The notes beneath the pieces are model-generated. The model had not been told where the DNA came from. It ran no database searches and saw nothing but the letters and a program-made list of their open reading frames with translations. 64,000 nucleotides of DNA from Candidatus Tanganyikabacteria bacterium. Its GTDB lineage: Bacteria > Cyanobacteriota > Sericytochromatia > S15B-MN24 > VGJW01. Where the stretch lies: assembly GCA_016867265.1 (NCBI GenBank), contig VGJW01000008.1, forward strand, positions 458-64,457, in the 5' to 3' direction. Each line of letters opens with the position of its first letter. The first letter of the stretch is position 1. Of this stretch, positions 4,792-33,182 are shown in pieces. The translations under genes were made by a program, and so were the position numbers.

Positions 4792-5277
4792 ATGGTCGAT
4801 TGGCTGCACAACGCGCAGGCGTGGCTGGCGCTCGCCGCCGTACTTCTGCTTGCGGAAATCCTGACCACCACGTTCTTCCTGGCCTGCCTGGCCCTGGGGG
4901 CGCTCGCCGCCGCAGGGTCGATTGCGCTGGGCCATGCGGGACAGGAAGCGCTGGTCGCCTTTTCGGTCGCAAGCGTTCTCTCGATGCTGGCCCTGCGCCC
5001 CTTCATGCTCAAGATGCTGCGACCGGCTAGCGAGGTCCGCACGAACGCGGCAGCCATCATCGGCCAGGAAGGCCGCGTCACCGTTGCCATCCGGCCCGAC
5101 ATGGATGAAGGCCGGGTCCAGGTGGGCGGGGAGGACTGGTGGGCGGTTTCGTCGAATGGCGAACCCATCGCGGTGGACTGCCGCATCCTGGTGCTGGCGG
5201 TCGACGGCAGCAAACTGACGGTGCGCCCGTCGGATGACCCCTCGCCCCCACTCGTACCCCCCGGACAAGGAGCTTGA
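4792..5277 (+). CDS. NfeD-family membrane protein (partner of SPFH/stomatin)
   Basis: Hydrophobic N-terminal TM segments and a C-terminal OB-fold-like region (VTVAIRPDMDEGRVQVGGEDWWAV). Ends 3 bp before the SPFH gene. Start chosen at ATG 4792 inside the longer ORF 4609..5277. Confidence 0.7.
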   Translation: MVDWLHNAQAWLALAAVLLLAEILTTTFFLACLALGALAAAGSIALGHAGQEALVAFSVASVLSMLALRPFMLKMLRPASEVRTNAAAIIGQEGRVTVAIRPDMDEGRVQVGGEDWWAVSSNGEPIAVDCRILVLAVDGSKLTVRPSDDPSPPLVPPGQGA

Positions 5278-9937: not shown

Positions 9938-9961
9938 ACCCCAAGGAAGGCAAGACACCCG

Positions 9962-10753
9962 ATGAAACGCGTGACACCCCGGGGGGCACTTGTATCAGGC
10001 CTCCTACTCCTCTCCATTCATGCGGGCGGCTGCACCGGCACGGCGGTTCCTGGTTCCGCTGCGACGAACGTGCCCAAGAAATCGCCCGCACCCAAGCCTT
10101 CAGCGGCCGCGCCGCGAGGACCAGGCACGGACAGTATGTCCGGCTCGATCGGGGGGGGCAGCAGCCCGACTCCGTCCCCTGCCACCTCCTCTGCTCCGCA
10201 GGGAGGTCAAACGGCAGGGGAAGCAAGTGGCGGGGCCGCCTCACCAGCGCCGACACCAGCCTCGGGCAGCGGCACTTCAGGCGGCTCAAGCCCTCAGGTG
10301 CCGGTGCCAACTGCAACAACCCCTCCCCCGTCTGGAACTCCGTCCTCGGGCGGAAACGACCCTGCGCCAGGCAACAATCCCTACTTCCCGCTGGAATCGT
10401 CCGACATCAAGTTAATGATTGGCAGTTCCATTGTCGGCAATATGATCAGTACGATCTACGAGCCGGCGCCCGACGGGAACAACTCCCTGAACAAGCCAAC
10501 CACGCTGAAACTGACGGCGTCTGTCTTGCTCAATAACCTCTCCACAGACAGCAGGGCCAAGTGGGAATCCAGGAACAGACTTGTGGCAATTGTTGACGCA
10601 ACAGGGCTCGTGACGGCAGTGGGCCGAGGCAGGACTGAAATTATCGCCAGACCTGCGGATGACCTGAGTTACCCAGCGGGCTACACGGTACCCACGGCAA
10701 CCGCGGTGATAGAAGTTCGTGCCGTCGCGGCCATCGACCTGGTGGTGGAGTGA
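9962..10753 (+). CDS. lipoprotein with Pro/Ser/Gly-rich linker and C-terminal Big_2-like Ig domain
   Basis: AAGGAAGG RBS. Lipobox LLLLSIHAGGCTG. Low-complexity PAPKPSAAAPRGPG...TPPPSGTPSSGG. C-terminal Big_2-like motif (LVAIVDATGLVTAVGRGRTEIIARP). Confidence 0.65.
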   Translation: MKRVTPRGALVSGLLLLSIHAGGCTGTAVPGSAATNVPKKSPAPKPSAAAPRGPGTDSMSGSIGGGSSPTPSPATSSAPQGGQTAGEASGGAASPAPTPASGSGTSGGSSPQVPVPTATTPPPSGTPSSGGNDPAPGNNPYFPLESSDIKLMIGSSIVGNMISTIYEPAPDGNNSLNKPTTLKLTASVLLNNLSTDSRAKWESRNRLVAIVDATGLVTAVGRGRTEIIARPADDLSYPAGYTVPTATAVIEVRAVAAIDLVVE

Positions 10754-19093: not shown

Positions 19094-19990
19094 ATGCCGC
19101 AGTGGATTCGTCCGGAAACCGGCCCTGAGCGCGAAACAATGCCCGATGCGGCGTGGGACCCGCCGGTTCCGGACACGTTGCGCCTGACGTGGCTGGGTAC
19201 CGCCTGCTTCCTGGTCCAGACCCGATCCACCACGCTTCTGCTTGACCCCTTCGTCAGCCGTCCGGGCCTCTGGCGCACGTTATCCTCCCCGCTTGATCCG
19301 GACCCCGCCGTGCTGGAACGCGTCGCGCGCTGGTTGCCGCGCCCCACCGCCCTGCTGGTCGGCCACGCCCACTACGACCATGCGCTCGACGCGGCGCCCA
19401 TCGCAGGTCGCTTCCGGGCACCCCTCCTCGCATCCCAGGGCATGCTTCGGCTGGCACGGGCCCAAGGCCTGCCTGCCGAGTTGGCCGAACCCGTGGCTGC
19501 GGGCGAAACGCACAGGATTGGAGACCTCGAGGTCACGTTCGTGCCCTCGGCCCATGCGCCACTGGCAACCCAGTGGCTGGTCGGCGGCGAGGTCGCCGAG
19601 GACCCGCGTCCTCCGCTCCGCCTGCGGGACTGGAGGCATGATGCCGTCCTCGGGTTGCGGATCCGCTGGCGTGGCCGATCGCTGCACCACTCGGGCAGCG
19701 CCGAGGTCTTGGGCATGCCCGGCCAATGGGCGCCCACCGACGTGCTGATGCTCTGCATGGCCGGCTGGACCGCCACGCCCGGACTGCTCGAGCGCGTCCA
19801 AGCCGTGCTGGCACCCAGAGTGCTGCTGCCGATGCACCATGACGACTTCTTCCGTCCCCTCGGCAAGGGTTTTCGCCCCTTGGCCGCGGCGCGCGAGGCA
19901 CTGGCCGTCAACACGTGGTCCCGCACGCTCGCCGTGACGACCATCGCGCCCGTCACGCGGCATTTCCAGCAATGGACGCTCACCGCGTGA
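19094..19990 (+). CDS. MBL-fold metallo-hydrolase
   Basis: HxHxDH motif LLVGHAHYDHALD plus downstream His/Asp ligands. Start uncertain: ATG 19094 or 19139 within ORF 18992..19990, which overlaps the upstream gene. Confidence 0.75.
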   Translation: MPQWIRPETGPERETMPDAAWDPPVPDTLRLTWLGTACFLVQTRSTTLLLDPFVSRPGLWRTLSSPLDPDPAVLERVARWLPRPTALLVGHAHYDHALDAAPIAGRFRAPLLASQGMLRLARAQGLPAELAEPVAAGETHRIGDLEVTFVPSAHAPLATQWLVGGEVAEDPRPPLRLRDWRHDAVLGLRIRWRGRSLHHSGSAEVLGMPGQWAPTDVLMLCMAGWTATPGLLERVQAVLAPRVLLPMHHDDFFRPLGKGFRPLAAAREALAVNTWSRTLAVTTIAPVTRHFQQWTLTA

Positions 19991-21381
19991 GGCAGACCGG
20001 CCTCGCGGCCCTTGCCCTGTGCATCCTCGCCGCGAGCCCGGCAGGTGCGACCCCGAGACCTGACGCAGACGCAGCAGAGGCGACGCGGCTGCTCGTCGAG
20101 CTGGTCCGCGTGGACACAAGCAACCCGCCAGGACGCGAGCGCGAGGCTGCCGAGCGGCTCGCCGGCTGGTGCCGGGCCGAGGGCTTCCGGACCGAGGTCA
20201 TCGAGACCGCCCCGGAGAGGGCGTGTGTCGTGGCCCGCCTGCCCGGGTCCGGTCGCAAGCCCCCGCTGATGCTGCTGAGCCATCTGGACGTGGTGCCTGC
20301 CGAAGCCTCGCAATGGCAGCACCCGCCCTTCGGGGGCGTCGTCCGGGACGGCCGGATCTGGGGGCGAGGCACCCTCGACATGAAGGGCCTGACGGTCATG
20401 GAATTTCTGGCGATGGCTCGGCTGAGCCGGGCCGGCAAGGTCCCCGATCGGGACCTGCTGCTCGTGGCCGTCGCGGATGAGGAGGCGGGGGGAACGTGGG
20501 GCATCAACCGCCTGCTCGAGCTCAGGCCCGAACTGCTGCAGGCCTCGGAGTGCCTGAATGAGGGAGGCTTCGGGCTTGTGGCACCCGACGGAAGCCCTGT
20601 CGTGGGCCTGTCCGTGGCCGAGCGGGGCACGTTCTGGGTACGGATCACGGCCCGTGGCAAGCCGGGCCACGGCTCGGTCGACCGTCCGGACAGCGCCACC
20701 CGCCGTCTGCTGCGCGCCCTCGACCGGCTCGAGCGCACCCCCCGGCCACTGGGCCTCATCCCCGAGGCCGACGCACTAGTCGGAGCCTTGGCGCCAACCC
20801 TGCCGTGGCCCGCGTCCTGGGTCCTGCAGATGTTGCGCTGGCCGGGCATGGCCGGCCTGCTGGGGCCGCTCGTCGTCGCGCGGCAACCCTCCCTGGCCGC
20901 CGCTCTGGGCCCCACCGTCAACCCGACCGTCCTCGAGGCCGGCACCAAGGTCAACGTCGTGCCGGGCGAGGCCAGTGCACTCGTCGACGTGCGCACGATG
21001 CCCGGACAGGCCAGTAGCGAGGCGCTCGCTTGGCTGAAGCACGCCCTTGGCGACGACGCGCTCGACATCCGCGTGCTTCAGGACCGGCCGGGCACGCGAA
21101 GCCAGGCTTCGGGCACGCTCTACGACGCGCTGACCGAAAGCGTCCGTACCCACGTCCCCGATGCCCGCGTCACGCCCATGCTGACGCCTGCGGGCACGAC
21201 GGACTCGGCCAGCCTCCGGCCCCGCGGCGTGGCCTGCATCGGTCTGATGCCCGTCATCGCGAGCCAGGCCCAACTCGAATCCATCCACGGGGATGACGAG
21301 TGGCTGGGCCTCGAGCAACTGGCGATCGGTACCCGCATCGTCGCCGACGCCGTGGCCCGGGCCAGCGGCCTTACGCCCTGA
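19987..21381 (+). CDS. M20-family metallopeptidase (ArgE/DapE/CPG2-like), secreted
   Basis: M20 signatures HLDVVPA and GRGTLDMKG, with an EEAGG metal-ligand region. Signal peptide VRQTGLAALALCILAASPAGA. GTG 19987 overlaps the upstream TGA (GTGA). Confidence 0.85.
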   Translation: MRQTGLAALALCILAASPAGATPRPDADAAEATRLLVELVRVDTSNPPGREREAAERLAGWCRAEGFRTEVIETAPERACVVARLPGSGRKPPLMLLSHLDVVPAEASQWQHPPFGGVVRDGRIWGRGTLDMKGLTVMEFLAMARLSRAGKVPDRDLLLVAVADEEAGGTWGINRLLELRPELLQASECLNEGGFGLVAPDGSPVVGLSVAERGTFWVRITARGKPGHGSVDRPDSATRRLLRALDRLERTPRPLGLIPEADALVGALAPTLPWPASWVLQMLRWPGMAGLLGPLVVARQPSLAAALGPTVNPTVLEAGTKVNVVPGEASALVDVRTMPGQASSEALAWLKHALGDDALDIRVLQDRPGTRSQASGTLYDALTESVRTHVPDARVTPMLTPAGTTDSASLRPRGVACIGLMPVIASQAQLESIHGDDEWLGLEQLAIGTRIVADAVARASGLTP

Positions 21382-22417
21382 CGCCGGACGGACGGTCTGC
21401 CACCACAAGATACTCGTGGTTGCGCAGGCGCCCGACTTCGCCGACCTTGCGGCCCTTGGGATCGTGGATGCCGATGCGGGCCCCGATGTAGCGGACATGC
21501 TCGATGGTCCGCACGTGGACACGGGCCGTCCCGCCCCAGAGGCACCCCAGCATGCCCTCGAGGTCCGCTAGGCCCAGATAGCCCTCGTCGTTGAAAGAGA
21601 CCACCACGCGGTCGCGAGCCCGCAGCGCCCCCAGCACGGCCTCGAAGGCCTCGCGATGGCGGGGCCGCGAGTTGAAGGCGCTACGACGCTCGCGGGTGTC
21701 GACGCGCTTGCACGCAACGCCGTAGGCCTCGGGCGCATCGTCCCGCACCAGCGTCTCCCAGACGTGGTAGTAGGCGTGGTACGCGTGCTGGTTGTACGGC
21801 GGATCGAGGTAGGCCACGTCGACCTCGTGTGCAGCCGCCGCCTCGACGGCTTCGAGGCCCAGCGCCAGGCCCTTGCCAGCCGATGAGCGCGGGATCAGGT
21901 CGGGGATGCGAAGCACGAGATCCCCGAGCGCCCGGGGCGCCCAGTGCTTGAGGTACGCCATCTGCAAGCCGGTCGTCGAATCGACGCGGTCCGCAGCCTC
22001 CATCAGGGCCACCAGCAGGATGGCTTCGCGCTCGGGCATGAGGTCCAGCTTGCCGATGCGCGCCCGGATGGCGTCGATGCGTGCTCCGTTGCGCGGGTGA
22101 AAGAATCGGGCCCGCTCGCAGAAGGTCTCCGTGAAGTAACCGGACGTCCCGGCCACGCCATTGAGCTCGGCGATTAAGGCCGGCAGGTCGCCCATGTGGT
22201 CCGCGGCATCCGCCGCGACATAGCAGCGCGCCAGGACCTCGGCGTAGGCGTTGTGGTCGTTGGCGATGACCCGGTGCCCGAGGCGCTTCAGGGCGTGCCC
22301 CACGCGCGAGGTGCCCGAGAAGAGGTCCAACACCGTACATGGGGCGCCGCGGTCCCCGACGAGGGCGTCGAGGACCGCGGGCATCAGGGCGCGCTTGGAG
22401 CCCAGGTACTTGATCAC
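21371..22417 (-). CDS. D12-class (Dam-like) N6-adenine DNA methyltransferase, orphan
   Basis: N-terminal MIKYLGSKR (Dam 'GSK' SAM motif), FSGTSRVG, and catalytic DPPY (VAYLDPPYNQ). GTG start overlaps the stop of the upstream VIT/vWA gene (GTGA). No restriction endonuclease gene is adjacent. Confidence 0.85.
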   Translation of the reverse strand: MIKYLGSKRALMPAVLDALVGDRGAPCTVLDLFSGTSRVGHALKRLGHRVIANDHNAYAEVLARCYVAADAADHMGDLPALIAELNGVAGTSGYFTETFCERARFFHPRNGARIDAIRARIGKLDLMPEREAILLVALMEAADRVDSTTGLQMAYLKHWAPRALGDLVLRIPDLIPRSSAGKGLALGLEAVEAAAAHEVDVAYLDPPYNQHAYHAYYHVWETLVRDDAPEAYGVACKRVDTRERRSAFNSRPRHREAFEAVLGALRARDRVVVSFNDEGYLGLADLEGMLGCLWGGTARVHVRTIEHVRYIGARIGIHDPKGRKVGEVGRLRNHEYLVVADRPSGVRA

Positions 22418-24834
22418 GCGTTCGGCAACAGCTGGCGGATCTCTCCCAGCAGCGGCGCTGCCAGATGATCCCCCGCCAGATCCTTCTTCCCCGGCGTGAC
22501 CGTCGCCAGCGCGGCAACGTCCGGATTTGCGGATGCCGCCAGCACCTGGCGGACTAGGCCCTGCTGCAACCCGGCCGGCAACAATCGGGCGACCAGATCA
22601 TCGACCCGCCGACGCTCGAAACCAAGCACCAGGGCCAACGCCAGGACCAGCCTCACCAGGACCGGGTCCAGTCCCGCGGCCATCTGGTCCAGCAAGCCGG
22701 GTAGCGCCCGACGGAAGGCCGCCCGTACCTGTGCCTCGTCCTCGACCCATGGGGCGAGGGAGACGAGCACGGCCAAGGTCTGACGTCCCCCGGCCCACTG
22801 GCCGTCCGCCTCCTGATCCAGCAGCAGATCCCGCCAGACGCTGGTCGGGGCGCTGGGCCGGAGCGATCGCGACCGCAAGGAGAGCGCCCTAGGGGAGCCT
22901 TCCTCGCAATCCATCATGTCTGCCGTGTCGAACACGTCGCGGAGGAAGTTGCCGACGGGATTCCAAGACGCAATATTGCGAAGCCGGTCCATGATGCCCT
23001 CCGACGAGGGAACCATGTCATTCACGTCAAGCTCTGGCCCGCCCGCGGAGTACGTCGGCGGCAGGTCCGAAAAGTCCTCGTCCCATCCCGCGGGCGCGTG
23101 GAGCGGCACATCGACCGTGACCGGCCGTCCCTTGACCTTGCGGCCCTTGGCATCGACGGCGACCCAGCTCGTCAGCGGCGTCATGACCTGGTGGGTCACG
23201 GCGAACTCGGCCCAGCGGTCACGTTCCGCGGCGTCGGGATTCTGCCGCAGGGCGTCGAGGACCCGCTCGCGCGCCCACAGGCGCGTCAGGCCGGGACGCT
23301 CGTGGGCCGCCTCGTCTTCCATCACCAGCGGATAGGCCTTCTCGAGGGCACCGGCCACGCCACTGGCCTTCAGGTGGAGCGTGACGGGTCCCTTGCCCTT
23401 GAAGCGGGCGAGCACCTGGAAGGGCTGGCCGTCGATCAGCGGCGGCAGCACGGCCGGCAGTGTCTCGGCCAGCTTGGCCCCTTCCAGCGTATACGTGACC
23501 TCCTCGAGGCGCGGCGCCATGATGGCGGCGAATTGCGCGGCAACCTTGTCGTCGATGGCCTCGCCCGGCACGATGTCGACCGCATCGCCGGCCGTCGCGC
23601 GCGCCAGGCGCTGCAGCAGCCCCATCACGACATTCGCGCCGATCCCGAAGGCATGCAGGCGTGCCTTGGCTCCTTGGGCTCGCTTCTGGTCGACCAGCCC
23701 CGTCAACTGATCCTCGCCCCATACCTGAGCGTCCGTCAGCAGGACATGGACGGCATCGGGCGCCAGCCGATAGGCGGCCTCGAGCGCCCGCTGCATGTCC
23801 GTTCCGCCCCGGGCATCAAGTGTCGCGATCCAGCGGTCGGCGCGCTCAAGCGCCCCCTGGCCAAAGGTCTCGAGCTTCTTCGAGAAGGTCTCGAGCGCAT
23901 CGTCGAACGCCAGAATGCCAAAGCGATCCCCGGGCCTGAGCTGCCTCAGGCAGAGCCGCAAGGCGCGACGTGCCTCTTCCATCGACGCACCCCCCATGGA
24001 GCCCGAGCGATCGACCAGGAAGACCACCTCGAGGGGCCGCTCGGCCGCGCCAGGATCGAGGTTGGCCAATTCCGGCACCACGAAAAGCGACACCACGCCC
24101 TGTCCTGCAGTGCGCTCGGCATGCACCCACGCCATCACCGCCTCGTCCGGTGCACGCATATCGAGCACCAGGTCACGGTCGAGCGGCTCGCCCGGGCCGT
24201 CGAACCCGATCTTGACCGCGTCGCCATCACGCCGGATCAGCAAGTCGTGGCTGGGGCTGTCGACCTCGAGGCCTGCCGTCCACGGCAATTCGAGATCCAG
24301 CGTCAGGCGATAGGGTACGTCGCCCTCGTGCCGCAGTGCGGTTCGGCCCTCCACGCCGCCAGACGCTGCATACCGGGGGGCGACGACGGTCGGGATGCGC
24401 CAGCGCAAGCTGCCTTCACGCGGCTCGAGGGGCACCAGCAAGACCAGTTCGACACGGGTCGGGGCATCCGGGTCCAGGTTGCCGAGCAACAAGCTGAAGA
24501 CCTCGCCGCGGATCTCCTCGACGAGGGCCGCACGGCGGCCGTCCCGAACGGCCCGGCGGTAGGTCTCGGCCGCCTCCTCGCGGCGCTCGACCTTGCCGCG
24601 TGTCACCCGATCGCCCACGGTGAACGAAAAGTCCGTCACGACGGCTCCTGCCGGCAGCGGGAAGACATAGCGGGCCTCGAGCGCCACGCCATTCGGGGCA
24701 GGCGCAAAGTCCTGCACGAGGCGCATCTCGGCCCAGCGGCCGACGATCCTTCCCCCGAGACGCACGGCGGCCAGGGGTACCTGGACATCCCCGGCAAGGC
24801 GAAGCGGAGAATACACAAGCGGGGAGACAGCCAT
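22414..24834 (-). CDS. cytosolic VIT (vault/inter-alpha-trypsin) + von Willebrand factor A domain protein with uncharacterised C-terminal domain
   Basis: ATG 24834 with AAGGAGG RBS; the longer ORF to 25041 is trimmed. VIT-like N-terminus. vWA MIDAS motif VVFLVDRSGSMGG ... GGTDMQRAL. No signal peptide. ~230-aa C-terminal region of unknown type. Confidence 0.8.
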   Translation of the reverse strand: MAVSPLVYSPLRLAGDVQVPLAAVRLGGRIVGRWAEMRLVQDFAPAPNGVALEARYVFPLPAGAVVTDFSFTVGDRVTRGKVERREEAAETYRRAVRDGRRAALVEEIRGEVFSLLLGNLDPDAPTRVELVLLVPLEPREGSLRWRIPTVVAPRYAASGGVEGRTALRHEGDVPYRLTLDLELPWTAGLEVDSPSHDLLIRRDGDAVKIGFDGPGEPLDRDLVLDMRAPDEAVMAWVHAERTAGQGVVSLFVVPELANLDPGAAERPLEVVFLVDRSGSMGGASMEEARRALRLCLRQLRPGDRFGILAFDDALETFSKKLETFGQGALERADRWIATLDARGGTDMQRALEAAYRLAPDAVHVLLTDAQVWGEDQLTGLVDQKRAQGAKARLHAFGIGANVVMGLLQRLARATAGDAVDIVPGEAIDDKVAAQFAAIMAPRLEEVTYTLEGAKLAETLPAVLPPLIDGQPFQVLARFKGKGPVTLHLKASGVAGALEKAYPLVMEDEAAHERPGLTRLWARERVLDALRQNPDAAERDRWAEFAVTHQVMTPLTSWVAVDAKGRKVKGRPVTVDVPLHAPAGWDEDFSDLPPTYSAGGPELDVNDMVPSSEGIMDRLRNIASWNPVGNFLRDVFDTADMMDCEEGSPRALSLRSRSLRPSAPTSVWRDLLLDQEADGQWAGGRQTLAVLVSLAPWVEDEAQVRAAFRRALPGLLDQMAAGLDPVLVRLVLALALVLGFERRRVDDLVARLLPAGLQQGLVRQVLAASANPDVAALATVTPGKKDLAGDHLAAPLLGEIRQLLPNA

Positions 24835-24902
24835 CAGGGACCTCCTTGCGGAACGGAAAACTGGACAGGCGAGGACGGGTGCCGGGAACACGACGGCAGT
24901 CG

Positions 24903-25370
24903 TCACGGGGGGCCAAGGGCCTCCAACCGCGCCAACCACGCGGCGTGACGCACCTTGGCCTCGGCCGTGAGATGTAACTCGACGCCGGGAGCCAGGACCA
25001 CGCGCCACCAGGCCTCGCCTGCCGGCGTCGGCGGCGGGCAAGCCAGCCGCGCTTCTTCCGGTGCCTCGATGGGCCGCGGGTCCCCGTCGGGTTGCTGAAG
25101 GGTCACGCGCCCCGCCAAGACGTCCTCAAGCCATCGGGCATCGGCTTGCGCAAGGGCCCGTCCGATGGCATCGAGGGGCCAGAACTGGTCCTGAAGCCGC
25201 CGGATGGCCTGGAGCCTCAGCAGATGCTCCCGCCCATAGGCTGTCTCGGCCCCCCGGAAATCGGGGGCGTGCAAGAGACCCCGCTGGATGTAGTAGCGAA
25301 CCGTGCGGGGCGAGACACCGGCTGCATGGGCCAACCCGGCCAGCTTCAGGGTTCGGTCGGGGGCTGCCAT
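24903..25370 (-). CDS. MerR-family transcriptional regulator
   Basis: HTH LKLAGLAHAAGVSPRTVRYYIQRGLL followed by a coiled-coil dimerisation helix. GAGAGG RBS. Confidence 0.85.
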   Translation of the reverse strand: MAAPDRTLKLAGLAHAAGVSPRTVRYYIQRGLLHAPDFRGAETAYGREHLLRLQAIRRLQDQFWPLDAIGRALAQADARWLEDVLAGRVTLQQPDGDPRPIEAPEEARLACPPPTPAGEAWWRVVLAPGVELHLTAEAKVRHAAWLARLEALGPP

Positions 25371-25394
25371 GCCCCCAACCTCTCACAAGACACA

Positions 25395-25415
25395 AACACT
25401 GTCAACTAGACAGTG
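25395..25415. promoter_or_regulatory. perfect 7-5-7 palindrome upstream of merR-family gene (candidate operator or terminator of the upstream SDR gene)
   Basis: CACTGTC-AACTA-GACAGTG lies in the 66-bp spacer between the NAD(P)H-binding gene end and the merR start. On the minus strand it is followed by TTTGTGTCTTG. Confidence 0.35.
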
Positions 25416-25436
25416 ACAAACCGACACACCATCGTC

Positions 25437-26069
25437 TTACCAAGCGACAGCAACGCCTTGGCGAATCCATGCTCCCTCCGACAGCTCCTGCACCATGAAG
25501 CCCGCCAGATCCGACCGGTCGATCTGTGCCGAACCCGGAACCCCGACACCAGCCCGCACCTGCCAGCGCCCCCGGGGCTTGCCCGACACCAGGCCCGGCG
25601 GGCGCACCAAGGTCCAATCGATGTCCGCCTCGCGGACCAACGCTTCCATCCGGCGCATGTCCGCGAAGACGGGCTTGAGGAAGAGCGGTTCGATGATGGC
25701 GCGGAAAATCCACGGCAGCTGGTAGTCGGGCGAAGGATCGAGCCCGGCAGCCGTGACGGCGATCAGACGACGGACGCCATGGGTCGCCATGGCTGCCAGG
25801 ATGTGCCGCATGCCCTCCGAATAGACCAGACGGTCCCGCTCGCCTGACCGCATGCCCAGTGCGGACAGCACGGCGTCGCACCCCGCGACGGCCTCGGTTA
25901 CCGAGACGGCATCCAGTACATCCCCCCGGCGCTTCTCGAGACGCTCGTGCACCACGTCCAAGGCCTCGGGCCGGCGGCAGACCGCCACCACCTCCTGACC
26001 CCCCTCGAGCGCCAGGCGCACGGCATGGCGCCCTGTCGACCCCGTCGCCCCGAACACGCAGACCTTCAC
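25437..26069 (-). CDS. NAD(P)H-binding atypical SDR (NmrA/SDR_a-like)
   Basis: Rossmann motif MKVCVFGATGSTGRHAVRLAL. GGAGG RBS. Confidence 0.8.
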   Translation of the reverse strand: MKVCVFGATGSTGRHAVRLALEGGQEVVAVCRRPEALDVVHERLEKRRGDVLDAVSVTEAVAGCDAVLSALGMRSGERDRLVYSEGMRHILAAMATHGVRRLIAVTAAGLDPSPDYQLPWIFRAIIEPLFLKPVFADMRRMEALVREADIDWTLVRPPGLVSGKPRGRWQVRAGVGVPGSAQIDRSDLAGFMVQELSEGAWIRQGVAVAW

Positions 26070-26134: not shown

Positions 26135-26935
26135 ATGCCGCAGATGCACGAAGTAGACTTTGAAATCAAAGGCGAAACCGTCCACTACGTCGAAGTGGAA
26201 CTGGATCCGGGCGAGGCAGCTGTCTCCGAGGCAGGCGCCATGTTGTGGGCCGAGGATGGCATCGTCATGGAGACGCTCTTCGGGGATGGGTCGCAGAAGA
26301 GCGGCGGCTTCCTCGGTTCGCTGCTGGGCGCGGGCAAGCGCCTGCTGACGGGCGAGTCGCTGTTCGTCACCATCTTCCACAACCAGGGCACCGGCAAGCG
26401 CCGGGTCGCGTTCTCGGCCCACCAGCCGGGCGAGATCGTTCCCGTCTCGCTGGATACGGTCGGCGGCACGCTCATCGCGCAGAAGGAAGCCTTCCTCTGC
26501 GGGGCCAAGGGCGTCAGCATCGGCCTGCATCTGCAGCGCAAGCTGGGCGCGGGGTTCTTCGGCGGCGAGGGCTTCATCATGCAGAAGCTCGAAGGCGACG
26601 GCCTGGTGTTCCTGTCGGCCGGTGGCTCGCTCATCCAGCGGTCGCTGCGTGACGGCGAGCGTCTCCGCGTCGATACCGGATGCGTCGTGGCCTACGAGAC
26701 TTCGGTCGACTTCGACATCGAGCTGGTCCGGGGCCTGAAGTCGATGTTCTTCAGCGGCGAAGGCATGTTCCAGTCGACGTTGGTCGGTCCCGGCCGCATC
26801 TGGCTGCAGTCGATGCCGTTCTCACGGATGGCGAGCGCCGTCGTCTCGGCGGCGGGCATCCGTCCAGGAAGCAGCAGCAGCGGCGGTGGATCCGCCCTCG
26901 GGATGATTGGCGACATGCTCGGAGGTAACGAGTAA
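26135..26935 (+). CDS. TIGR00266/AIM24-family protein
   Basis: Characteristic Gly-rich beta-strand repeats (AFLCGAKGVSIGLHLQRKLGAGFFGGEGFIMQKLEGDGLVFLSAGGSLIQRSLRDGERLRVDTGCVVAYE). GAAGGAGGG RBS. Confidence 0.85.
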   Translation: MPQMHEVDFEIKGETVHYVEVELDPGEAAVSEAGAMLWAEDGIVMETLFGDGSQKSGGFLGSLLGAGKRLLTGESLFVTIFHNQGTGKRRVAFSAHQPGEIVPVSLDTVGGTLIAQKEAFLCGAKGVSIGLHLQRKLGAGFFGGEGFIMQKLEGDGLVFLSAGGSLIQRSLRDGERLRVDTGCVVAYETSVDFDIELVRGLKSMFFSGEGMFQSTLVGPGRIWLQSMPFSRMASAVVSAAGIRPGSSSSGGGSALGMIGDMLGGNE

Positions 26936-28386
26936 TGCGGCGGACGAACCGGCAAGTATTCTCCATGCTGGCCTTCTCGGTCGGCATCGTCGGTCTCGCG
27001 ACCGAGGCCAACGCCCAGGTCAAGCGAAGCGGCGGACCAGCTTCGCTGAGCACCCCGGCGCCGCTCAAGCCTGCAGCAGCGCCCGTGAGCGCCGGCATGC
27101 CCGCCCAGGTCGCCGAGGCCAAGGGACACACGGGACTCTCCATCGACATCGGGATCGGCCTTGGCGGTGCCCACGGCCAAGCCGGCACGGCGACCGTGCG
27201 GACAAAGACCGCGGCCGAAATCGTCAACGACATCGATCCCTCGCCCAAGAACGCCAGCACGGTGACCTCGGACGTCACCAGCACGACGCTGGGTGGCGGG
27301 CTGGGTGCCAGCTACGGTCTCGGATTGCGCTGGCGCAGCGGCGAGGGCTGGGGAACCAGCCTGCGCATCGACGGGGGTGGGTTCTCCTCCGGTACATCCA
27401 CGACGGCGCTGGGCAGCCTGGGCCGGACAGACAAGGATGCGGTCGCCTCCGTGGCAACGGAAGGCACGAAGACCACCGCGAAGACTCTGGGCGATCGCCT
27501 GGATGTCTCATCCTTGCTGGCGGGCGTGCTTGGTGCATCGGTAGCCCTGACCTTCCCTGTCCCGCTTCCTGCCAACCAACAGCCCGCTGTCGGCCCCGCC
27601 CCGACGACGACAACGTTCACGGGGCTGGGCAACTTGGCGCAGGCAGGTGGTACCTTTGCGGTACGGGACGGGGCGGTCGACAATGCCGGCACCACCAGCA
27701 CCTTCAAGTCGACGGGCGGCATCGCCTACCGTCACGCGGCCTCGCTCCTGATCTACGACATGACGGCGGCCACGAGCATGGCCGTCATGCGTCGTCCTGA
27801 TGCCGAAATCAGCCTCGTGGGCGGCCTCACCGTGCCCGCGGCCGTGCGTTCGGCCTCGTTCGTGCAGCAGACGGTGGATGCCACCGGCAAGCCTGCCGAG
27901 CTTTCGGAGCTGGAGACCCTCACCACGACGGCGGACGGCGCGGCCAAGGGCTCGGTCCTCAACGGCTTGAACGCCACCAGCAACGTCACGGTGGACACCA
28001 CCGAGGTCATGTTCGGCCCCCTGCTGGGCGCCGAGGGACACGTGGCACTTGGGTCCGGTGCGACGATCTACGGCCAGGTCGGCTGGGCACCTGCTCTGGG
28101 TGGCCAGGGCAGCAGCCGGACCCGCAGCGTCGAATCCGGTGTGCGCCGGGTCGAGACCATCGCGGAAGACAAAAGCGCCACGACTACCGAGAACCAGATA
28201 GCCAACAGCGTGACCACGGAAACGGCCCGCGGCTTCCTGGGCCAGTCCGCCCAGGGCCTCGTCGGCCTGCAACTGCAGGTGCTGGGTCTCGACACGTTCG
28301 TCGAGACGGGCGCGCGCACCTACACGTTCGGCACGGGGCCCCAGACGGTCTGGCATGTCCGAGGCGGCGCCGGCCTGTCGTTCTGA
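26935..28386 (+). CDS. outer-membrane beta-barrel protein
   Basis: Signal peptide MRRTNRQVFSMLAFSVGIVGLATEANAQ. Alternating amphipathic strands. C-terminal ...VRGGAGLSF ending in Phe. ATG overlaps the upstream TAA (TAATG). Confidence 0.6.
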   Translation: MRRTNRQVFSMLAFSVGIVGLATEANAQVKRSGGPASLSTPAPLKPAAAPVSAGMPAQVAEAKGHTGLSIDIGIGLGGAHGQAGTATVRTKTAAEIVNDIDPSPKNASTVTSDVTSTTLGGGLGASYGLGLRWRSGEGWGTSLRIDGGGFSSGTSTTALGSLGRTDKDAVASVATEGTKTTAKTLGDRLDVSSLLAGVLGASVALTFPVPLPANQQPAVGPAPTTTTFTGLGNLAQAGGTFAVRDGAVDNAGTTSTFKSTGGIAYRHAASLLIYDMTAATSMAVMRRPDAEISLVGGLTVPAAVRSASFVQQTVDATGKPAELSELETLTTTADGAAKGSVLNGLNATSNVTVDTTEVMFGPLLGAEGHVALGSGATIYGQVGWAPALGGQGSSRTRSVESGVRRVETIAEDKSATTTENQIANSVTTETARGFLGQSAQGLVGLQLQVLGLDTFVETGARTYTFGTGPQTVWHVRGGAGLSF

Positions 28387-28460: not shown

Positions 28461-31400
28461 ATGACTGTCTCTCCCTCCACCGACATCACGGCACGCGCGG
28501 AAGCCTCGGTCGAGGCATGGAAACGCAGGCTGCTCGACCTGTCCCTGCGCAACAGGGCCCTGAATCTCAAGACCGGTGGTCCCGGCGCGCTGGCGTGCGA
28601 GGGCCCGGATCCCGTGCAGGCCCTGCGCCACCTCGTCCTCGACGAGCAACGATATGGTTTCCACGCGACCCGAACGACCGAAGGCACCGAGGAAGATCCT
28701 GCGGTTGCTCCGGGCGTCCCGGAGGCCAGCCTGGCCGTCGCCATGACCCGGCATGCCCTGGACGGGGCACTGCGACGGCTGGATGATGCCGCCGCCCGGG
28801 CACGGGAAGACCAGGGCCTGGGCATCCTCTTCCTCTGCCTCGGGCAGATCCGCTGGGTCGACCCGCGCCAGCCGGGCACCCCGCTGCTGGCACCGCTGCT
28901 GCTGCTGCCGGTGACCCTCTCACGAAGGGCGGTCGGTGGCAGCTACCACCTCGAGGCCAGCCAGGAAGACCCCATCGTCAACCCCACCTTGGCCGAAGCC
29001 CTGCGCCACCACCACCGCATCGAACTTCCGGCCCTGCCCGACGACCTCGACCCGCCCGACGAGCAACAACCCGATCCCCTGGCGGCGTGGTTCGACGACG
29101 TGACCCGGGAAATCGGCCGGATGGACAAGGGCGCCATCGAGCACCGCGTCGTCCTGACCACGCTCTCCTTCGCGAAGTACGTCATGTATCGCGACCTGAA
29201 CGTGCTCGCGCCGGGCCTTGCCGCGCACCCCCTCGCCAGCAGGCTCTTCCAACGCAAGGTCGACGAGATGGTCGGCCTGCCCGCAAGCATGCGCGACCTC
29301 GATCTGGACCGCGACCACCCCCCGGAGAACACGCCCCAGATCGTCGATGCGGATGGCAGCCAGTTGCGCGCCGTCGCCGCGGTGTCCAGAGGCCATGACC
29401 TGGTTCTGGAAGGTCCGCCCGGCACGGGCAAGTCACAGACCATCACCAACCTGATCGCCTCGGTCCTCGCCCGTGGGGGCCGCGTCCTCTTCGTCGCCGA
29501 GAAAAAGGCGGCGCTCGACGTGGTCCATGCCAAGCTGGCGGCGGCCGGCCTGGGCGAATGCTGCCTCGAGCTTCATGCGGCCAAGGCGACACGCCGCGCC
29601 GTCCTCGCCAGCATCGGGGAGGCCCTGGATCGCTCGTTGGCGCAGGTCACCCCACCCTCGGGCGCGGGCCCCGTCCTCAAGGACAGCCGGGCGCGCCTCG
29701 CGGCCTACCTCGGAGCCCTGCATCAGACGACACCTGAGGGCGGGCTGTCGGCGCGCATGTGGATGGACCGGCTCGAACCCGTCCGTCAGGCACCACGGTG
29801 TACGCTCGAGGGCGCCCCGGCAGCGTGGAACGAGACCCTCTGGCGCGAGGCCATCCGAGCCCTCGAGGCCCTGGGCCAGACCGGCACGGCGCTTGGCAAT
29901 CCGGCCGACCACCCGTGGCGGGGCTGCCGCCTGATCCTGCTGACGGAAGACCGCACGGCCCGCATCGACGAGGCCGCGGGCCTGCTCAGGCAGGCACTGG
30001 ATACGGCCCGAGATGCGGCCGTGGCCGTGGCTGGCAACTATGGCCTGCCGCCTCTGCGCAAGCTGTCGGACCTCGCAATGGCCGCGAGCCTGGGCGACAT
30101 GCTGGCCGAGGCACCCGGCCTGCCGATGCTGGACGAGGCGTGGCAGGCGCCCCCCCCTGCCGCGACGGCAGCCCTCGAGGCCCTGCGCACCCTGGCCAAC
30201 CGGCGCAAGGCCATCGCACCCTGGGCCGAGGGCCGATGGGACGCTTGCACCGCGCTGCCCCGGGAAACCCTGTCGGCCGACCTGGCCCATGTCCGGGCGG
30301 CCCGGCAACGCCTGTGGGGCCTAGGAGCCCTGCTGGACGGACGGGTCCGGCACTTGCGGCGCCATTGGGCCAACCTCGGCGACAAACTGTCGGCCGCCGA
30401 TACCGAGCAACGTCTGGCCGACGTGGTGGCATGGCGCGACGCGGTCGCCGCCGTCGAAGCCATGGCTGCCGAGGGCCAAAGGGTCTTCGGGGGGCTGTGG
30501 CGCGGCACCGCGACCGATGCCGAGGCCCTGGGCCAGGCCATGGACTGGATGGTGGCCTTCCGAGCGCTTTGCGTGCGCCATCAGCTGTCCCGGGAGCCTC
30601 TTGCCGGGGTCGCGGGCCAACGGCATCCGGAGGTCTCGGACCTGCGGGCCTTGCGCCAGCGGCTGGAAGCCCTGCGCACCGCATTGCGATCTCTGGAAGA
30701 GGCCGTGGCCTGGCCCGAGGGATGGCTGGCGAACGAGGACCTCGATGAGGCGGATCGCCGGGTGGAAGCCCTGCAGGCACGGCTTGCGGACGGACCACGC
30801 TGGACGGCGTGGGAAGGTGCGCGACAACAGGTGCTGGCAACGGAGGGGAGACGCATCCTCGCGGCGGTCGACGACGGCAGGATTCCTCCAGCGCAGGCTG
30901 CGGCAGCCTTCCAGCGGGCCGCGGCAGTGGAGCGCCTGGATGCCCTGGTGGCCGGCAATCCGGTGCTCGCGAGCTTCAATGGTCCGGTGCACGAGCAGGA
31001 CATCGACACCTTCCGCAAGCTGGACCAGCAGGTCCTGCAGGACAATCGCCTCGGCCTGGTGGCGGGACACCGGCATCGCCTGCAGGAGGCCTTCCGCCAA
31101 CCGGACCTGCAGGCCGAGCTCCAGATCCTGCGGCGCGAGGTCAATCGCCTGCGGGCCCACCGTCCGCTGCGCGAGACCATGCGCAAGGCAGGCAGGGCCA
31201 TCCGCACCATCAAGCCGTGCCTGCTGATGAGCCCGCTGACCGTGGCCCAATTCCTGCCGCCCGACATCGAAGCCTTCGACCTGGTGGTCTTCGACGAAGC
31301 CTCGCAGTTGCCGACTCAGGACGCCATCGGCGCCATCGCGCGGGGCCGCCAGCTGGTGGTGGTCGGGGATCCCCGGCAGCTGCCGCCTACCAACTTCTTC

Positions 31401-33182
31401 CAGATCGCCCTCGACGAGGAAGTTCCTCGGGACGAGGACGGCGAGCCCCTGCTGGAAACCACCGAGAGCGTCCTCGAGGAGTTCGTGTCGGCGGGCATCC
31501 CGTTCTGCCGCCTGAAGTGGCATTACCGCAGCCAGCACCCCTCCCTGATCCAATACTCCAACGTGCAGTGCTACGACGGTGAGTTGCTGACGCCCCCGTC
31601 GCCCTTGCCGCGATCAGAGACCCTCGGGCTTGCCTTCCACCACGTCGCGGACGGCATCTATGAGGGGCAGGGCCGCAACCCTCGCGAGGCCCGTGCCGTG
31701 GCCGAAGCCGTCATGGCTCACTTCCGCCGGCACCCCGACTTGTCTCTGGGCGTCGGCACCTTCAACCAGGCACAGCAGCAGCTGATCCTCGATGAAGTGG
31801 ACCGCCTGCGCCGCCAAGAGCCCGATCTGGAAGCCCTCTTCGGACGGGACCGGCCCGAGCCCTTCTTCGTGAAGCACCTCGAAACCATTCAGGGCGATGA
31901 GCGCGACGTCATCCTGATCTCGGTCTCTTACGGCCGCAACAGCCAGGGTCGCATCCACCAGCTCTTCGGTCCCCTGAACCAGGACCAAGGCTGGCGCCGG
32001 CTGAACGTCCTCGCCTCGCGAGCTCGCAAGCGGATGGCGGTCTACGCGTCCATCCTTGCCGAGGACCTGCGCCTGGGTCCCGCGCAGTCGGATGGACCAA
32101 GGCTGCTGCGGACCTTCCTGCACTTCGCCCAGACCGGACATCTGGACCTTCCGGGCGGCCACGCCGACGCACTGCCCGAGAACGCCTTTGAGGCCGGAGT
32201 ACGCGGGGAGCTTGCACGGCTGGGCCACGAGGTCGTCTCCCAGGTCGGCGTGGCCGGCTTCCGCATTGATCTGGCCGTCATGGACCCGGCGCGACCGGGT
32301 CGCTTCCTGTGCGGCATCGAGTGCGACGGCGCCAGCTATCACAGCTCCCCCACGGCCCGGGACCGGGATCGCCTGCGCCAGCAACTGCTCGAGGCCCGGG
32401 GCTGGACCATCCTGCGGGTCTGGTCGACGGACTGGTTCAAGGACCGTGCCGGCGAGGTCGCGCGCCTGGATGCACGGTTGAAAGAGTTGGCGAGGCAGGC
32501 CCAACCGGTGTCGGCAGTCGAAACGGCGAATACGGAGGCAGCCGCGTCCATCACCGTTGCCCCAGAGGCCCCCTCTGCTGCGCCCGTTACGGCGACCGAC
32601 GGCAGCGATGCTCGCGAACGCCCCTACCGGCGCCCGGTCCTGACACGCTATGTGGCCGTCACCGAGTTGACGCCGGCGCCCGGCGGCGAGCTGGCCGAAG
32701 CCCCGCTCGACCTGCTGGCCCGCCACCTGCGCCAGATCGCGGCGGTCGAGGCCCCCATCCACGTCGATGAACTTGCGGCAAGGCTCGTGGCTATCTGGCA
32801 ACGCCGACAGGGCAGCCGCATCCGGGCGCACCTCGACAGGGCCTTGGCCATCCTGCTCCGCGAGGGTGGCTTGGTGCGTCGCGGCGACTTCATCCATCGG
32901 GAGGAAGGCCGGGTCCTGCCACGCTGCCGCACGGACGTGGCCCTGAAGGCGGATCGGATCGCACCCGAGGAATACGGCGCGGCCTTGCTCGCCGTGCTTG
33001 CAGACGGCCACGGCTTCGATCGGGACCGACTGTTGGGGGAAGTGCGGGGCGTGTTGGGCTTCAGCCGGACAGGTCCCCAGCTGGAAGCCGCCATCGAGGC
33101 CGCCATGCAGGATTTGCTGGCCCAAGGAGCCCTTGGCCAGGGCAGTGCAGGCGTCGCGCTGCGGGAAGGCCAGGGGGGCTGA
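28461..33182 (+). CDS. large DUF4011 / SF1 (Upf1-like) helicase / DUF559-Vsr-like endonuclease protein (Hhe-like single-gene defence candidate)
   Basis: Walker A GPPGTGKSQTITNLIAS. Motif II VVFDEASQL and VVGDPRQLPPT. C-terminal helicase motifs (ETIQGDERDVILIS; LNVLASRARKRM). Endonuclease-like fold FRIDLAVMDPARPGRFLCGIECDGASYHSS...RDRLRQQLLEARGWTILRVWSTDWF. AAGGTGAGGA RBS. Confidence 0.85.
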   Translation: MTVSPSTDITARAEASVEAWKRRLLDLSLRNRALNLKTGGPGALACEGPDPVQALRHLVLDEQRYGFHATRTTEGTEEDPAVAPGVPEASLAVAMTRHALDGALRRLDDAAARAREDQGLGILFLCLGQIRWVDPRQPGTPLLAPLLLLPVTLSRRAVGGSYHLEASQEDPIVNPTLAEALRHHHRIELPALPDDLDPPDEQQPDPLAAWFDDVTREIGRMDKGAIEHRVVLTTLSFAKYVMYRDLNVLAPGLAAHPLASRLFQRKVDEMVGLPASMRDLDLDRDHPPENTPQIVDADGSQLRAVAAVSRGHDLVLEGPPGTGKSQTITNLIASVLARGGRVLFVAEKKAALDVVHAKLAAAGLGECCLELHAAKATRRAVLASIGEALDRSLAQVTPPSGAGPVLKDSRARLAAYLGALHQTTPEGGLSARMWMDRLEPVRQAPRCTLEGAPAAWNETLWREAIRALEALGQTGTALGNPADHPWRGCRLILLTEDRTARIDEAAGLLRQALDTARDAAVAVAGNYGLPPLRKLSDLAMAASLGDMLAEAPGLPMLDEAWQAPPPAATAALEALRTLANRRKAIAPWAEGRWDACTALPRETLSADLAHVRAARQRLWGLGALLDGRVRHLRRHWANLGDKLSAADTEQRLADVVAWRDAVAAVEAMAAEGQRVFGGLWRGTATDAEALGQAMDWMVAFRALCVRHQLSREPLAGVAGQRHPEVSDLRALRQRLEALRTALRSLEEAVAWPEGWLANEDLDEADRRVEALQARLADGPRWTAWEGARQQVLATEGRRILAAVDDGRIPPAQAAAAFQRAAAVERLDALVAGNPVLASFNGPVHEQDIDTFRKLDQQVLQDNRLGLVAGHRHRLQEAFRQPDLQAELQILRREVNRLRAHRPLRETMRKAGRAIRTIKPCLLMSPLTVAQFLPPDIEAFDLVVFDEASQLPTQDAIGAIARGRQLVVVGDPRQLPPTNFFQIALDEEVPRDEDGEPLLETTESVLEEFVSAGIPFCRLKWHYRSQHPSLIQYSNVQCYDGELLTPPSPLPRSETLGLAFHHVADGIYEGQGRNPREARAVAEAVMAHFRRHPDLSLGVGTFNQAQQQLILDEVDRLRRQEPDLEALFGRDRPEPFFVKHLETIQGDERDVILISVSYGRNSQGRIHQLFGPLNQDQGWRRLNVLASRARKRMAVYASILAEDLRLGPAQSDGPRLLRTFLHFAQTGHLDLPGGHADALPENAFEAGVRGELARLGHEVVSQVGVAGFRIDLAVMDPARPGRFLCGIECDGASYHSSPTARDRDRLRQQLLEARGWTILRVWSTDWFKDRAGEVARLDARLKELARQAQPVSAVETANTEAAASITVAPEAPSAAPVTATDGSDARERPYRRPVLTRYVAVTELTPAPGGELAEAPLDLLARHLRQIAAVEAPIHVDELAARLVAIWQRRQGSRIRAHLDRALAILLREGGLVRRGDFIHREEGRVLPRCRTDVALKADRIAPEEYGAALLAVLADGHGFDRDRLLGEVRGVLGFSRTGPQLEAAIEAAMQDLLAQGALGQGSAGVALREGQGG

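Follow-up and report, generated by a model that had tools for sequence, protein, structure and literature searches.

Gene order at the locus

We examined a 64,000-nt stretch of Candidatus Tanganyikabacteria DNA (contig VGJW01000008.1; hereafter the window, GC ~68%), the closest relatives of which are Candidatus Sericytochromatia metagenome-assembled genomes, and in it a row of four minus-strand genes (21371–26069) encoding, in order of transcription, an SDR, a MerR-family regulator, a protein with VIT and vWA domains, and a D12-class N6-adenine methyltransferase (Table 1). The last three had been singled out in an initial annotation, made from the sequence alone, as closely spaced same-strand genes that could constitute an uncharacterised epigenetic or defence module. 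Their proximity is borne out by the gene order: 68 nt separate merR from the vWA gene, and the vWA and methyltransferase genes overlap by 4 bp, an arrangement as a single transcription unit from which we infer co-transcription. A longer, 875-aa version of the vWA open reading frame (ORF) was rejected as spurious, as it overlaps merR and the true ATG has a Shine-Dalgarno sequence 5' of it.

Table 1. Genes, protein domains and sequence elements at the locus (nucleotide positions are those of the window; aa, residues of the encoded protein)
Feature	Position	Strand	Details and basis
SDR gene	25437-26069	-	NAD(P)-binding SDR/NmrA-like; upstream of merR
merR	24903-25370	-	155 aa; ATG at 25370, stop at 24903; Pfam MerR_1 7e-14
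VIT-vWA gene	22414-24834	-	806 aa; ATG at 24834
D12 N6-adenine methyltransferase gene	21371-22417	-	348 aa; GTG at 22417; PF02086 5.6e-30
M20 peptidase gene	19915-21381	convergent	overlaps methyltransferase 3' end by 11 bp
AIM24-family gene	26135-26935	+	stop/start overlap with next gene
483-aa gene	26935-28386	+	no Pfam match; follows AIM24-family gene
Helicase-nuclease gene	28461-33182	+	1573 aa; DUF4011/AAA_11/AAA_12/MTES_1575/DUF3320
Perfect 7-5-7 palindrome	25397-25415	-	CACTGTC-TAGTT-GACAGTG (coding strand); 19 nt
Palindrome core ACTGTC-N5-GACAGT	25398-25414	-	predicted MerR operator
-35-like hexamer TTGACA	25400-25405	-	inside right arm of palindrome
Third half-site TGTGTC	25389-25394	-	sequence
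Candidate -10 hexamer GAGGTT	25377-25382	-	17 nt after TTGACA, 6 nt before merR ATG
Shine-Dalgarno AAGGAGG	24841-24847	-	6 nt 5' of vWA ATG
GTGA overlap	22414-22417	-	4 bp; vWA stop TGA / methyltransferase start GTG
MerR conserved C-terminal motif plus helix	aa 121-152; nt 24915-25010	-	WWRVVLAPGVELHL; 88-sequence alignment
VIT beta-sandwich, ITIH-like	aa 16-250	-	Pfam, AlphaFold model
vWA domain, complete MIDAS	aa 269-440; DRSGS at nt 23998-24012	-	Pfam, alignment
beta-domain plus helices	aa 445-547	-	AlphaFold model
Disordered linker, ~80 aa	aa 583-663	-	AlphaFold model
All-helical C-terminal domain, ~140 aa	aa 665-802; nt 22429-22842	-	AlphaFold model

Conservation of the merR and VIT-vWA pair

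Among 80 loci from GTDB species genomes found with the vWA alignment, ~35 have a full-length MerR homologue directly upstream on the same strand (42–50% identity, including the C-terminal motif; gaps of ~20–400 nt, mostly <140). Most of these MerR-linked loci are from Myxococcota; Planctomycetota, Opitutales and Desulfatitalea contribute weaker cases. The presence of merR goes together with that of the helical C-terminal domain (CTD) of the vWA protein: MerR is directly upstream in 25 of the 28 CTD-bearing loci, and 43 of the 46 MerR-less loci have no CTD either, the remaining nine loci having MerR and no CTD (five of them on contigs truncated before the CTD). Orthologues at 41–43% vWA identity share the CTD and have merR directly upstream in differing neighbourhoods, and the pair is likewise kept in different surroundings in L003, L004 and L006. 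MerR is the only neighbour conserved across clades (28 or more loci); no conserved third cassette gene was found among these loci, where PhoX recurs in only five. That gene, for a Tat-signal PhoX-like phosphatase, lies upstream of merR in L003, L004/L005, L031, L034 and L044, which represent two distant lineages, and its recurrence could reflect a link to phosphate or metal, or chance.

A search from the MerR side identified a locus (L176) in which merR is followed by separate VIT and vWA genes. These lie at 5001–7883 of L176, right after merR, and encode proteins of 325 and 480 aa with a 4-bp overlap between the genes; L177 has the same arrangement, and the VIT and vWA parts can therefore be separate chains. 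Apparent MerR-vWA fusions, ORFs of 1000 aa and more in some myxobacteria, were rejected: merR has its own stop codon, and the long ORFs are alternate-frame artefacts of high-GC DNA. The neighbours in the window and its five closest relatives are SDR, AIM24, M20 peptidase and a metallo-beta-lactamase-fold protein, with none of the partners of vWA-MoxR, TerY-type or ternary vWA conflict systems (a MoxR AAA+ ATPase, or a kinase or phosphatase) among them.

Judged by this distribution, merR and the CTD-bearing VIT-vWA gene are a conserved two-gene unit, found mostly in Myxococcota. Our literature search found no paper combining VIT, vWA and MerR and no description of the pair, which is apparently an undescribed and uncharacterised member of the common regulator-plus-target kind.

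The VIT-vWA protein

Pfam searches identified a VIT domain (2.5e-24, 86 bits) followed by a VWA_3 domain (2e-19, 70 bits), and the residues of the metal-ion-dependent adhesion site (MIDAS), D275-x-S277-x-S279, T345 and D368, are invariant among 93 homologues. This order, VIT and then a vWA domain with the full MIDAS signature (DxSxS...T...D), places the protein in the ITIH/VWA5A/PARP4-type VIT-vWA architecture; its AlphaFold model (pLDDT, the predicted local distance difference test score, of 79) superposes over ~600 residues on ITIH1 (6fpy, E = 2e-30, Foldseek), and PARP4 and ITIH4 were also matched in the sequence search. The protein has no hydrophobic region at its N-terminus, where residues 16–31 are already VIT strands, and its one hydrophobic helix (aa 719–739) is modelled as a core helix of the CTD bundle. 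The initial description of a signal-less, 806-aa protein with VIT and MIDAS-bearing vWA domains was thus accurate, and from sequence and model together the protein is likely cytoplasmic. It scored 305 bits against the sortase-target model TIGR03788, below the cut-off of 551.65, and ends in the helical domain with no sorting signal.

The C-terminal ~230 residues, first listed as one unassigned domain, are indeed unassigned but consist of the disordered linker followed by the smaller helical domain (Table 1). A profile search with this domain, proposed at the outset as a check, identified 196 clusters (50% identity) among 1.84 billion representatives, in all of which it is at the protein C-terminus; the fold search returned no significant structural relatives of the CTD, and its first hairpin is weakly similar to the QW repeats of terpene cyclases. 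We also considered the C-terminal tail as a read-through product of DNA of a former restriction gene; this was unsupported, and the last helix seems matched in orthologues that have no methyltransferase. The ratio of nonsynonymous to synonymous substitution rates (dN/dS) of the vWA gene (0.22–0.31) indicates purifying selection.

The MerR-family regulator and its predicted operator

The product of merR belongs to the MerR family (PF13411, 52.1 bits against a cut-off of 21.6; PDB sequence match to MerR, 5crl, 3.6e-5) and consists of a helix-turn-helix (HTH) and wing (aa 11–75), a short helix, a Pro-rich variable linker, and a C-terminal motif plus helix. In an alignment of 88 sequences the HTH and the C-terminal motif (W-x-R-x-x-L-A-P-G-V-E-L-h-V plus helix) are conserved, including a Glu within the motif; the sole Cys, C111, is not, and no other position of the alignment has a conserved Cys. 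The protein scored below every NCBIfam equivalog cut-off, far below in the case of the metal and redox equivalogs, and reached only 18.6 of the 105 bits required by the HspR model (NF047375), with no chaperone genes in the neighbourhood. Its gene is under purifying selection (dN/dS 0.15–0.19). Several ~155-aa MerR homologues (P0268, P0271, P0281, P0283, and P0325–P0327) are labelled "Ca-activated chloride channel family protein" by JGI, probably a carry-over from the neighbouring vWA gene.

The initial annotation had noted a perfect 7-5-7 palindrome by merR, which is present as described, though it occupies the 19 nt from 25397 rather than beginning at 25395. It is the sole perfect copy in the 64 kb and sits between the SDR stop codon, 22 nt away, and the merR ATG. 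With up to two mismatches allowed, 27 of 35 loci, drawn from several phyla, have the core ACTGTC-N5-GACAGT within 120 nt 5' of merR; the other 416 kb contain five matches, a background from which 0.0014 would be expected per 120 nt. The aligned consensus, cAcTGtC-nAC-TTGACAgT-N4-gTGtC, has a TTGACA in its right arm and a third half-site after it; the element is kept in L001, L002, L173 and L175, and the myxobacterial loci read TTGACA-N17-TACTGT-N7-GTG. Its conservation makes the palindrome a cis element adjoining merR, and we predict that it is the operator to which MerR would bind. Because the candidate -10 hexamer GAGGTT is only 6 nt from the ATG, and the myxobacterial spacing is alike, the merR mRNA may be leaderless, if the promoter is rightly placed. 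The position of the dyad, the 17-nt spacing to the candidate -10 hexamer and the unconserved Cys all set this protein apart from the classical MerR-type activators (MerR, CueR, SoxR, ZntR). Since the -35/-10 spacer is 17 bp instead of 19–20 bp, and since the dyad covers the -35 hexamer, we favour repression relieved by a signal over classical activation by DNA untwisting.

The methyltransferase and its restriction-modification ancestry

The third gene of the proposed operon encodes a D12-class enzyme (PF02086, 105.3 bits against a cut-off of 22) with motif I (DLFSGTSRVG) and motif IV (DPPY) invariant in the family alignment and in the alpha-type order, motif I first. It had been called a Dam-like D12 methyltransferase; the class is correct, but the Dam family model TIGR00571 gave 15.8 bits against a cut-off of 114.85. 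Its strong match in PADLOC is to the REBASE-derived type II model MTase_II (PDLC03298, 7e-132), with a weak match to an orphan-methyltransferase model as well. The family is very uniform, at 54–66% identity across phyla, and we sampled it as 80 metagenomic loci (54–63% identity) plus three genome contexts. A plasmid or phage origin was considered and dropped, the closest plasmid enzymes being ≤30% identical and the PHROGs matches only generic.

Clustering the flanking ORFs of these 80 loci identified a gene of ~280 aa immediately upstream of the methyltransferase, with a 4-bp overlap with its start, in L100, L101, L108, L145 and L170. The product matches PADLOC REase_II (3e-36) and has a DD...EYK motif resembling PD-(D/E)xK, features of a putative family of type II restriction endonucleases. 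It had no Pfam family, no plasmid match and no meaningful PDB match, and our attempt to name the restriction enzyme or its target site failed. In the 68 loci that extend 900 nt or more upstream, the restriction gene is intact in five, broken in two and present as short C-terminal remnants in four, with no trace in 57, from which we conclude that this restriction-modification (R-M) family has repeatedly lost its restriction gene. The broken copies and remnants (L122, L124, L096, L126, L148, and L165), and a weaker short match in L011/L012, represent successive stages of decay.

No homologue or remnant of the restriction gene was found in the window or in L001 and L002 (tblastn with E up to 1; unfiltered HMM, i.e., hidden Markov model, search), including where remnants were specifically sought, within and upstream of the methyltransferase gene and in the vWA 3' end. 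The locus therefore lacks the adjacent restriction gene that would make it a type II R-M system, and the claim at the outset that no restriction enzyme is present holds for these three sequences. Seen against its family, the solitary methyltransferase is what remains of a type II R-M system that has decayed. With its catalytic motifs intact and a dN/dS of 0.11–0.13 (relatives at dS up to 0.68), it is clearly maintained by purifying selection and has retained its function. The 11-bp tail-to-tail overlap with the M20 peptidase gene (21371–21381) has counterparts across the family in other phyla, where the methyltransferase 3' end overlaps convergent genes for MsrAB, deoxyhypusine synthase and a fatty-acid desaturase by 4–29 bp (L007, L009, and L011).

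The stop/start junction

The junction reads ...AAC GCG TGA / GTG ATC AAG, so that, as had been claimed, the GTG start of the methyltransferase overlaps the stop codon of the vWA gene. The overlap is conserved in L001, L002, L173/174 and L175, and in all five relatives the 4 bp are identical, the methyltransferase starts with GTG and no Shine-Dalgarno sequence precedes this codon, which fits the translational coupling that had been proposed. The overlap is, however, not peculiar to this pair of genes. In 69 of 77 members of the methyltransferase family the gene starts NTG-AT(C/T/A) (Met-Ile-Lys-Tyr), which embeds a TGA, and this same TGA ends unrelated genes elsewhere, e.g., those for a YgiQ-like radical-SAM protein (L113), a PNP/Ser-Thr kinase (L138) and RNase II (L117), as well as the restriction genes themselves. 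By this comparison the GTGA overlap comes with the 5' end of the methyltransferase gene itself; because the TGA is embedded in the start and used by unrelated genes, the junction is no evidence of a partnership with the vWA protein. It suggests instead that expression of the methyltransferase comes about through read-through and re-initiation from whichever gene is upstream.

Distribution of the vWA-methyltransferase pairing

The five closest homologues of the vWA protein (64–100% identity) are in fully syntenic contigs (AIM24 / SDR-MerR-vWA-MTase / M20-lactamase_B), and because the whole block is syntenic in all five, the pairing counts as one lineage and one event. Outside it, none of the 80 genome vWA loci contains a methyltransferase homologue; a vWA ORF was identified in 68 of these loci, and 66 of them extend at least 1.1 kb beyond it, far enough to reveal such a gene. 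The two orthologue loci (41% identity) that extend past the vWA stop codon have none either. Conversely, a vWA gene is present in none of the 80 metagenomic methyltransferase loci and none of the three genome contexts (Planctomycetota and Deltaproteobacteria), in which the methyltransferase is alone, behind or between housekeeping genes. The initial annotation had itself suggested such a survey, reasoning that the linkage would probably be fortuitous if vWA homologues never co-occurred with a methyltransferase in other genomes; outside the one syntenic Sericytochromatia lineage this is what we observed. On these counts the methyltransferase is not a general partner of the merR-vWA cassette, and the proposal that the two make up an epigenetic or defence module is not supported.

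Defence-system searches and neighbouring genes

PADLOC searches found none of the signature proteins of BREX, DISARM, MADS or other systems beside the methyltransferase, and had no match to the vWA protein or the SDR. The MerR HTH weakly matches mad1 (1e-6) and the methyltransferase mad2 (1.5e-4); the former match is confined to the generic HTH, the latter to 36 residues close to the methyltransferase N-terminus. The view that this is not a standard R-M, BREX or DISARM layout was thus well founded. The helicase-nuclease encoded on the other side of the SDR gene resembles Hhe, scoring 1322 bits with PADLOC PDC-S37 and 1263 bits with NCBIfam ProA (below its cut-off of 1500), and these matches make it a probable candidate for an antiphage system of one gene. 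Synteny extends to it in L001 and L002, but no copy was found beside the vWA or methyltransferase homologues of other loci. The AIM24-family gene and the 483-aa gene that follows it, with their stop/start overlap, are also kept in L001 and L002.

Rfam and tRNA searches of the window returned no RNA elements. At 9001–10000 the GC content falls to 0.53 (window ~0.68), within an ORF at 7421–9937 (+) of 838 aa. Read by eye, the product has a hydrophobic segment at its N-terminus, and its C-terminal half is repetitive and rich in Gly, Tyr and Asn.

Origin and possible function of the locus

Based on the distributions above, we think that the locus probably consists of two units of different origin lying end to end, a merR-vWA cassette and a captured orphan methyltransferase. 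In the first unit, a MerR dimer would bind the ACTGTC-N5-GACAGT dyad plus the further TGTC half-site over the -35 of its own promoter, and would thereby set the transcription of merR (a probable autoregulation) and of the genes downstream. The VIT-vWA protein, with its MIDAS and without a secretion signal, is on this account a protein-binding scaffold. As a working model we propose feedback of the kind seen in HspR/DnaK or TnrA/glutamine synthetase: the vWA protein would bind the C-terminal motif of MerR, the conserved Glu of which is a typical MIDAS ligand, and under stress, to which the operon would respond, it would be titrated away. The methyltransferase descends from a type II pair whose restriction gene lay directly upstream and ended on the TGA in the NTG-ATC start. 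The ancestor of one Sericytochromatia lineage would have gained it at the cassette's 3' end, either without the restriction gene or with the latter lost afterwards; the vWA gene and the methyltransferase gene would now share a transcript, on which the latter is simply a passenger, and are probably translationally coupled.

Several points weigh against this account. Three CTD-positive loci (L028, L030, and L051) have no detectable upstream MerR gene; the candidate -10 hexamer is weak, and a scan for sigma-70 consensus sequences called no promoter; and MerR binding, repression and contact between the vWA protein and MerR are predictions. The search for the restriction gene covered 64 kb of the genome, and such a gene could lie elsewhere. 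A link to stress is by analogy only, with the VIT-VWA protein LT3126 of Limnobacter thiooxidans, which may or may not belong to the MerR-linked clade. Furthermore, the junction, the GTG and the lack of a Shine-Dalgarno sequence have been kept over dS ~0.7–1.0, which points to stable expression from the operon, and a lineage-specific functional tie of the methyltransferase to the operon may exist.

The last of these points leads to an exaptation, in which the relic methyltransferase is now solely under the MerR promoter and provides stress-inducible adenine methylation, a regulated epigenetic switch in the Sericytochromatia clade. Besides the preserved junction, it has in its favour that the methyltransferase has no promoter or Shine-Dalgarno sequence of its own and is more conserved than the vWA protein and MerR; and regulatory roles are well documented for orphan methyltransferases (reviewed in PMC13076061). 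However, this reading assumes both that the operon is inducible and that methylation varies, and elsewhere the methyltransferase lies behind housekeeping genes (carB, RNase II, radical-SAM), which suggests simple constitutive read-through; we regard an exaptation as unlikely, if still worth keeping in mind. A related and more speculative idea, to which we give slightly less credence, is that merR and the CTD-bearing VIT-vWA gene make up a previously undescribed feedback sensor that, in the Sericytochromatia lineage, has also captured the methyltransferase. The vWA MIDAS could hold the C-terminal motif of its own MerR-type repressor and let it go when ligands produced under stress (damaged proteins, possibly phage proteins) compete for the site, and adenine methylation would belong to the response so induced.

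We consider it very improbable that merR, the VIT-vWA gene and the methyltransferase gene are one functional module, i.e., a new defence or epigenetic system. The overlap conserved in five relatives with no Shine-Dalgarno sequence before the GTG, the purifying selection on all three genes and the PDC-S37/Hhe-like antiphage helicase 3.6 kb away would all suit such a module, but the co-occurrence is confined to one syntenic lineage (0/80, 0/80, and 0/2 elsewhere), the identical overlap is formed with unrelated genes, the ancestral partner of the methyltransferase is a type II restriction enzyme, and PADLOC does not recognise the vWA protein. As for the palindrome, it could in principle be the intrinsic terminator of the SDR gene rather than an operator, roles that are not mutually exclusive: it scores as terminator-like, with seven base pairs in the stem, five nucleotides in the loop and a T-rich tail (TTTGTGTCTT), and lies 22 nt past the SDR stop codon. 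This too we rate as highly doubtful, given that the dyad precedes merR across phyla despite other or divergent upstream genes (PhoX, GSHPx, acetyltransferase, and others), that its conservation is one of sequence (ACTGTC, TTGACA) beyond mere pairing, that a terminator scan found two sites against 2.3 expected by chance, and that the stem has only four G-C pairs. Finally, it is scarcely credible that the methyltransferase shields the genome from the helicase-nuclease as a dispersed R-M-like pair, for although the helicase carries a restriction-endonuclease-like MTES_1575 domain and accompanies the methyltransferase in the syntenic L001 and L002, its homologue is found in 0/80 methyltransferase loci, the models of PDC-S37, Hhe and ProA each consist of one protein, Hhe acts as a single gene, and the two genes are on opposite strands with four genes between them.

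The account of a merR-vWA cassette with a captured orphan methyltransferase removes a false lead, in which an overlap with an unusual protein mimics a new defence or epigenetic system, and it is a warning for guilt-by-association screens of defence islands, as this methyltransferase family lands behind unrelated genes. It also delimits a unit made up of a MerR with a distinctive C-terminal motif, an ITIH-like, probably cytoplasmic VIT-vWA protein with a rare CTD, and a conserved, precisely placed predicted operator. The role of bacterial intracellular VIT-vWA proteins, hinted at so far by one radiation-resistance preprint only, becomes testable with this unit, since the pair is present in genetically tractable Myxococcota.

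Comparison with known systems

The VIT beta-sandwich and MIDAS-bearing vWA domain are those of the ITIH heavy chains, VWA5A, PARP4 and Dictyostelium Vwa1, and the intracellular VWA5A, PARP4 and Vwa1 are likewise without a signal peptide (PMC10539598). Unlike these, the protein described here is bacterial, is encoded behind a MerR gene, has its own helical CTD and lacks a PARP or ITI_HC_C domain; the proteobacterial VIT-vWA loci among the 80 have neither MerR nor CTD. The sole bacterial member of the architecture with a reported phenotype that our literature search found is LT3126 of L. thiooxidans (708 aa), a VIT-VWA protein with a MIDAS for which a cytoplasmic action was proposed, as we propose here; gamma rays, oxidants and heat are reported to induce it, and its overexpression to raise survival ~200-fold (bioRxiv 10.64898/2026.05.23.727404). 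Unlike the cassette described here, LT3126 is presented in that preprint with no mention of a MerR neighbour. The same preprint reports 124 genera in which the VIT-VWA gene is accompanied by a Dna2/NAM7-like helicase.

In the mechanism that we propose, and in that only, the cassette resembles circuits in which a small MerR-family protein lacks a ligand-binding domain: merR would be in one operon with the gene for a protein-binding partner, a dyad overlaps the predicted promoter, and the regulator has a conserved short C-terminal segment after a flexible linker. Such MerR-family regulators controlled by a partner protein are HspR, which binds HAIR and is controlled by DnaK, and TnrA/GlnR, controlled by glutamine synthetase. 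The cassette differs from them in having no chaperone or glutamine synthetase genes and in the sequence and spacing of its operator (HAIR being CTTGAGT-N7-ACTCAAG and the TnrA site TGTNA-N7-TNACA).

With type II R-M, BREX, DISARM and MADS the locus has an adenine methyltransferase in common, and it lacks the restriction gene, PglZ/BrxC, DrmA/B and the other Mad components of those systems. The methyltransferase is neither Dam nor CcrM and has no close plasmid relatives. It compares best with orphan methyltransferases left by decayed type II R-M systems, the conservation of which has been described (PMC6471742, PMC13076061), being a D12 alpha-type enzyme with intact motifs and no restriction gene nearby; its own relatives include intact R-M pairs, pairs with a broken restriction gene and many highly conserved solitary copies. 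It is thus a new member of a well-known kind, set apart from other orphan methyltransferases by a start codon that embeds the stop of whichever gene is upstream.

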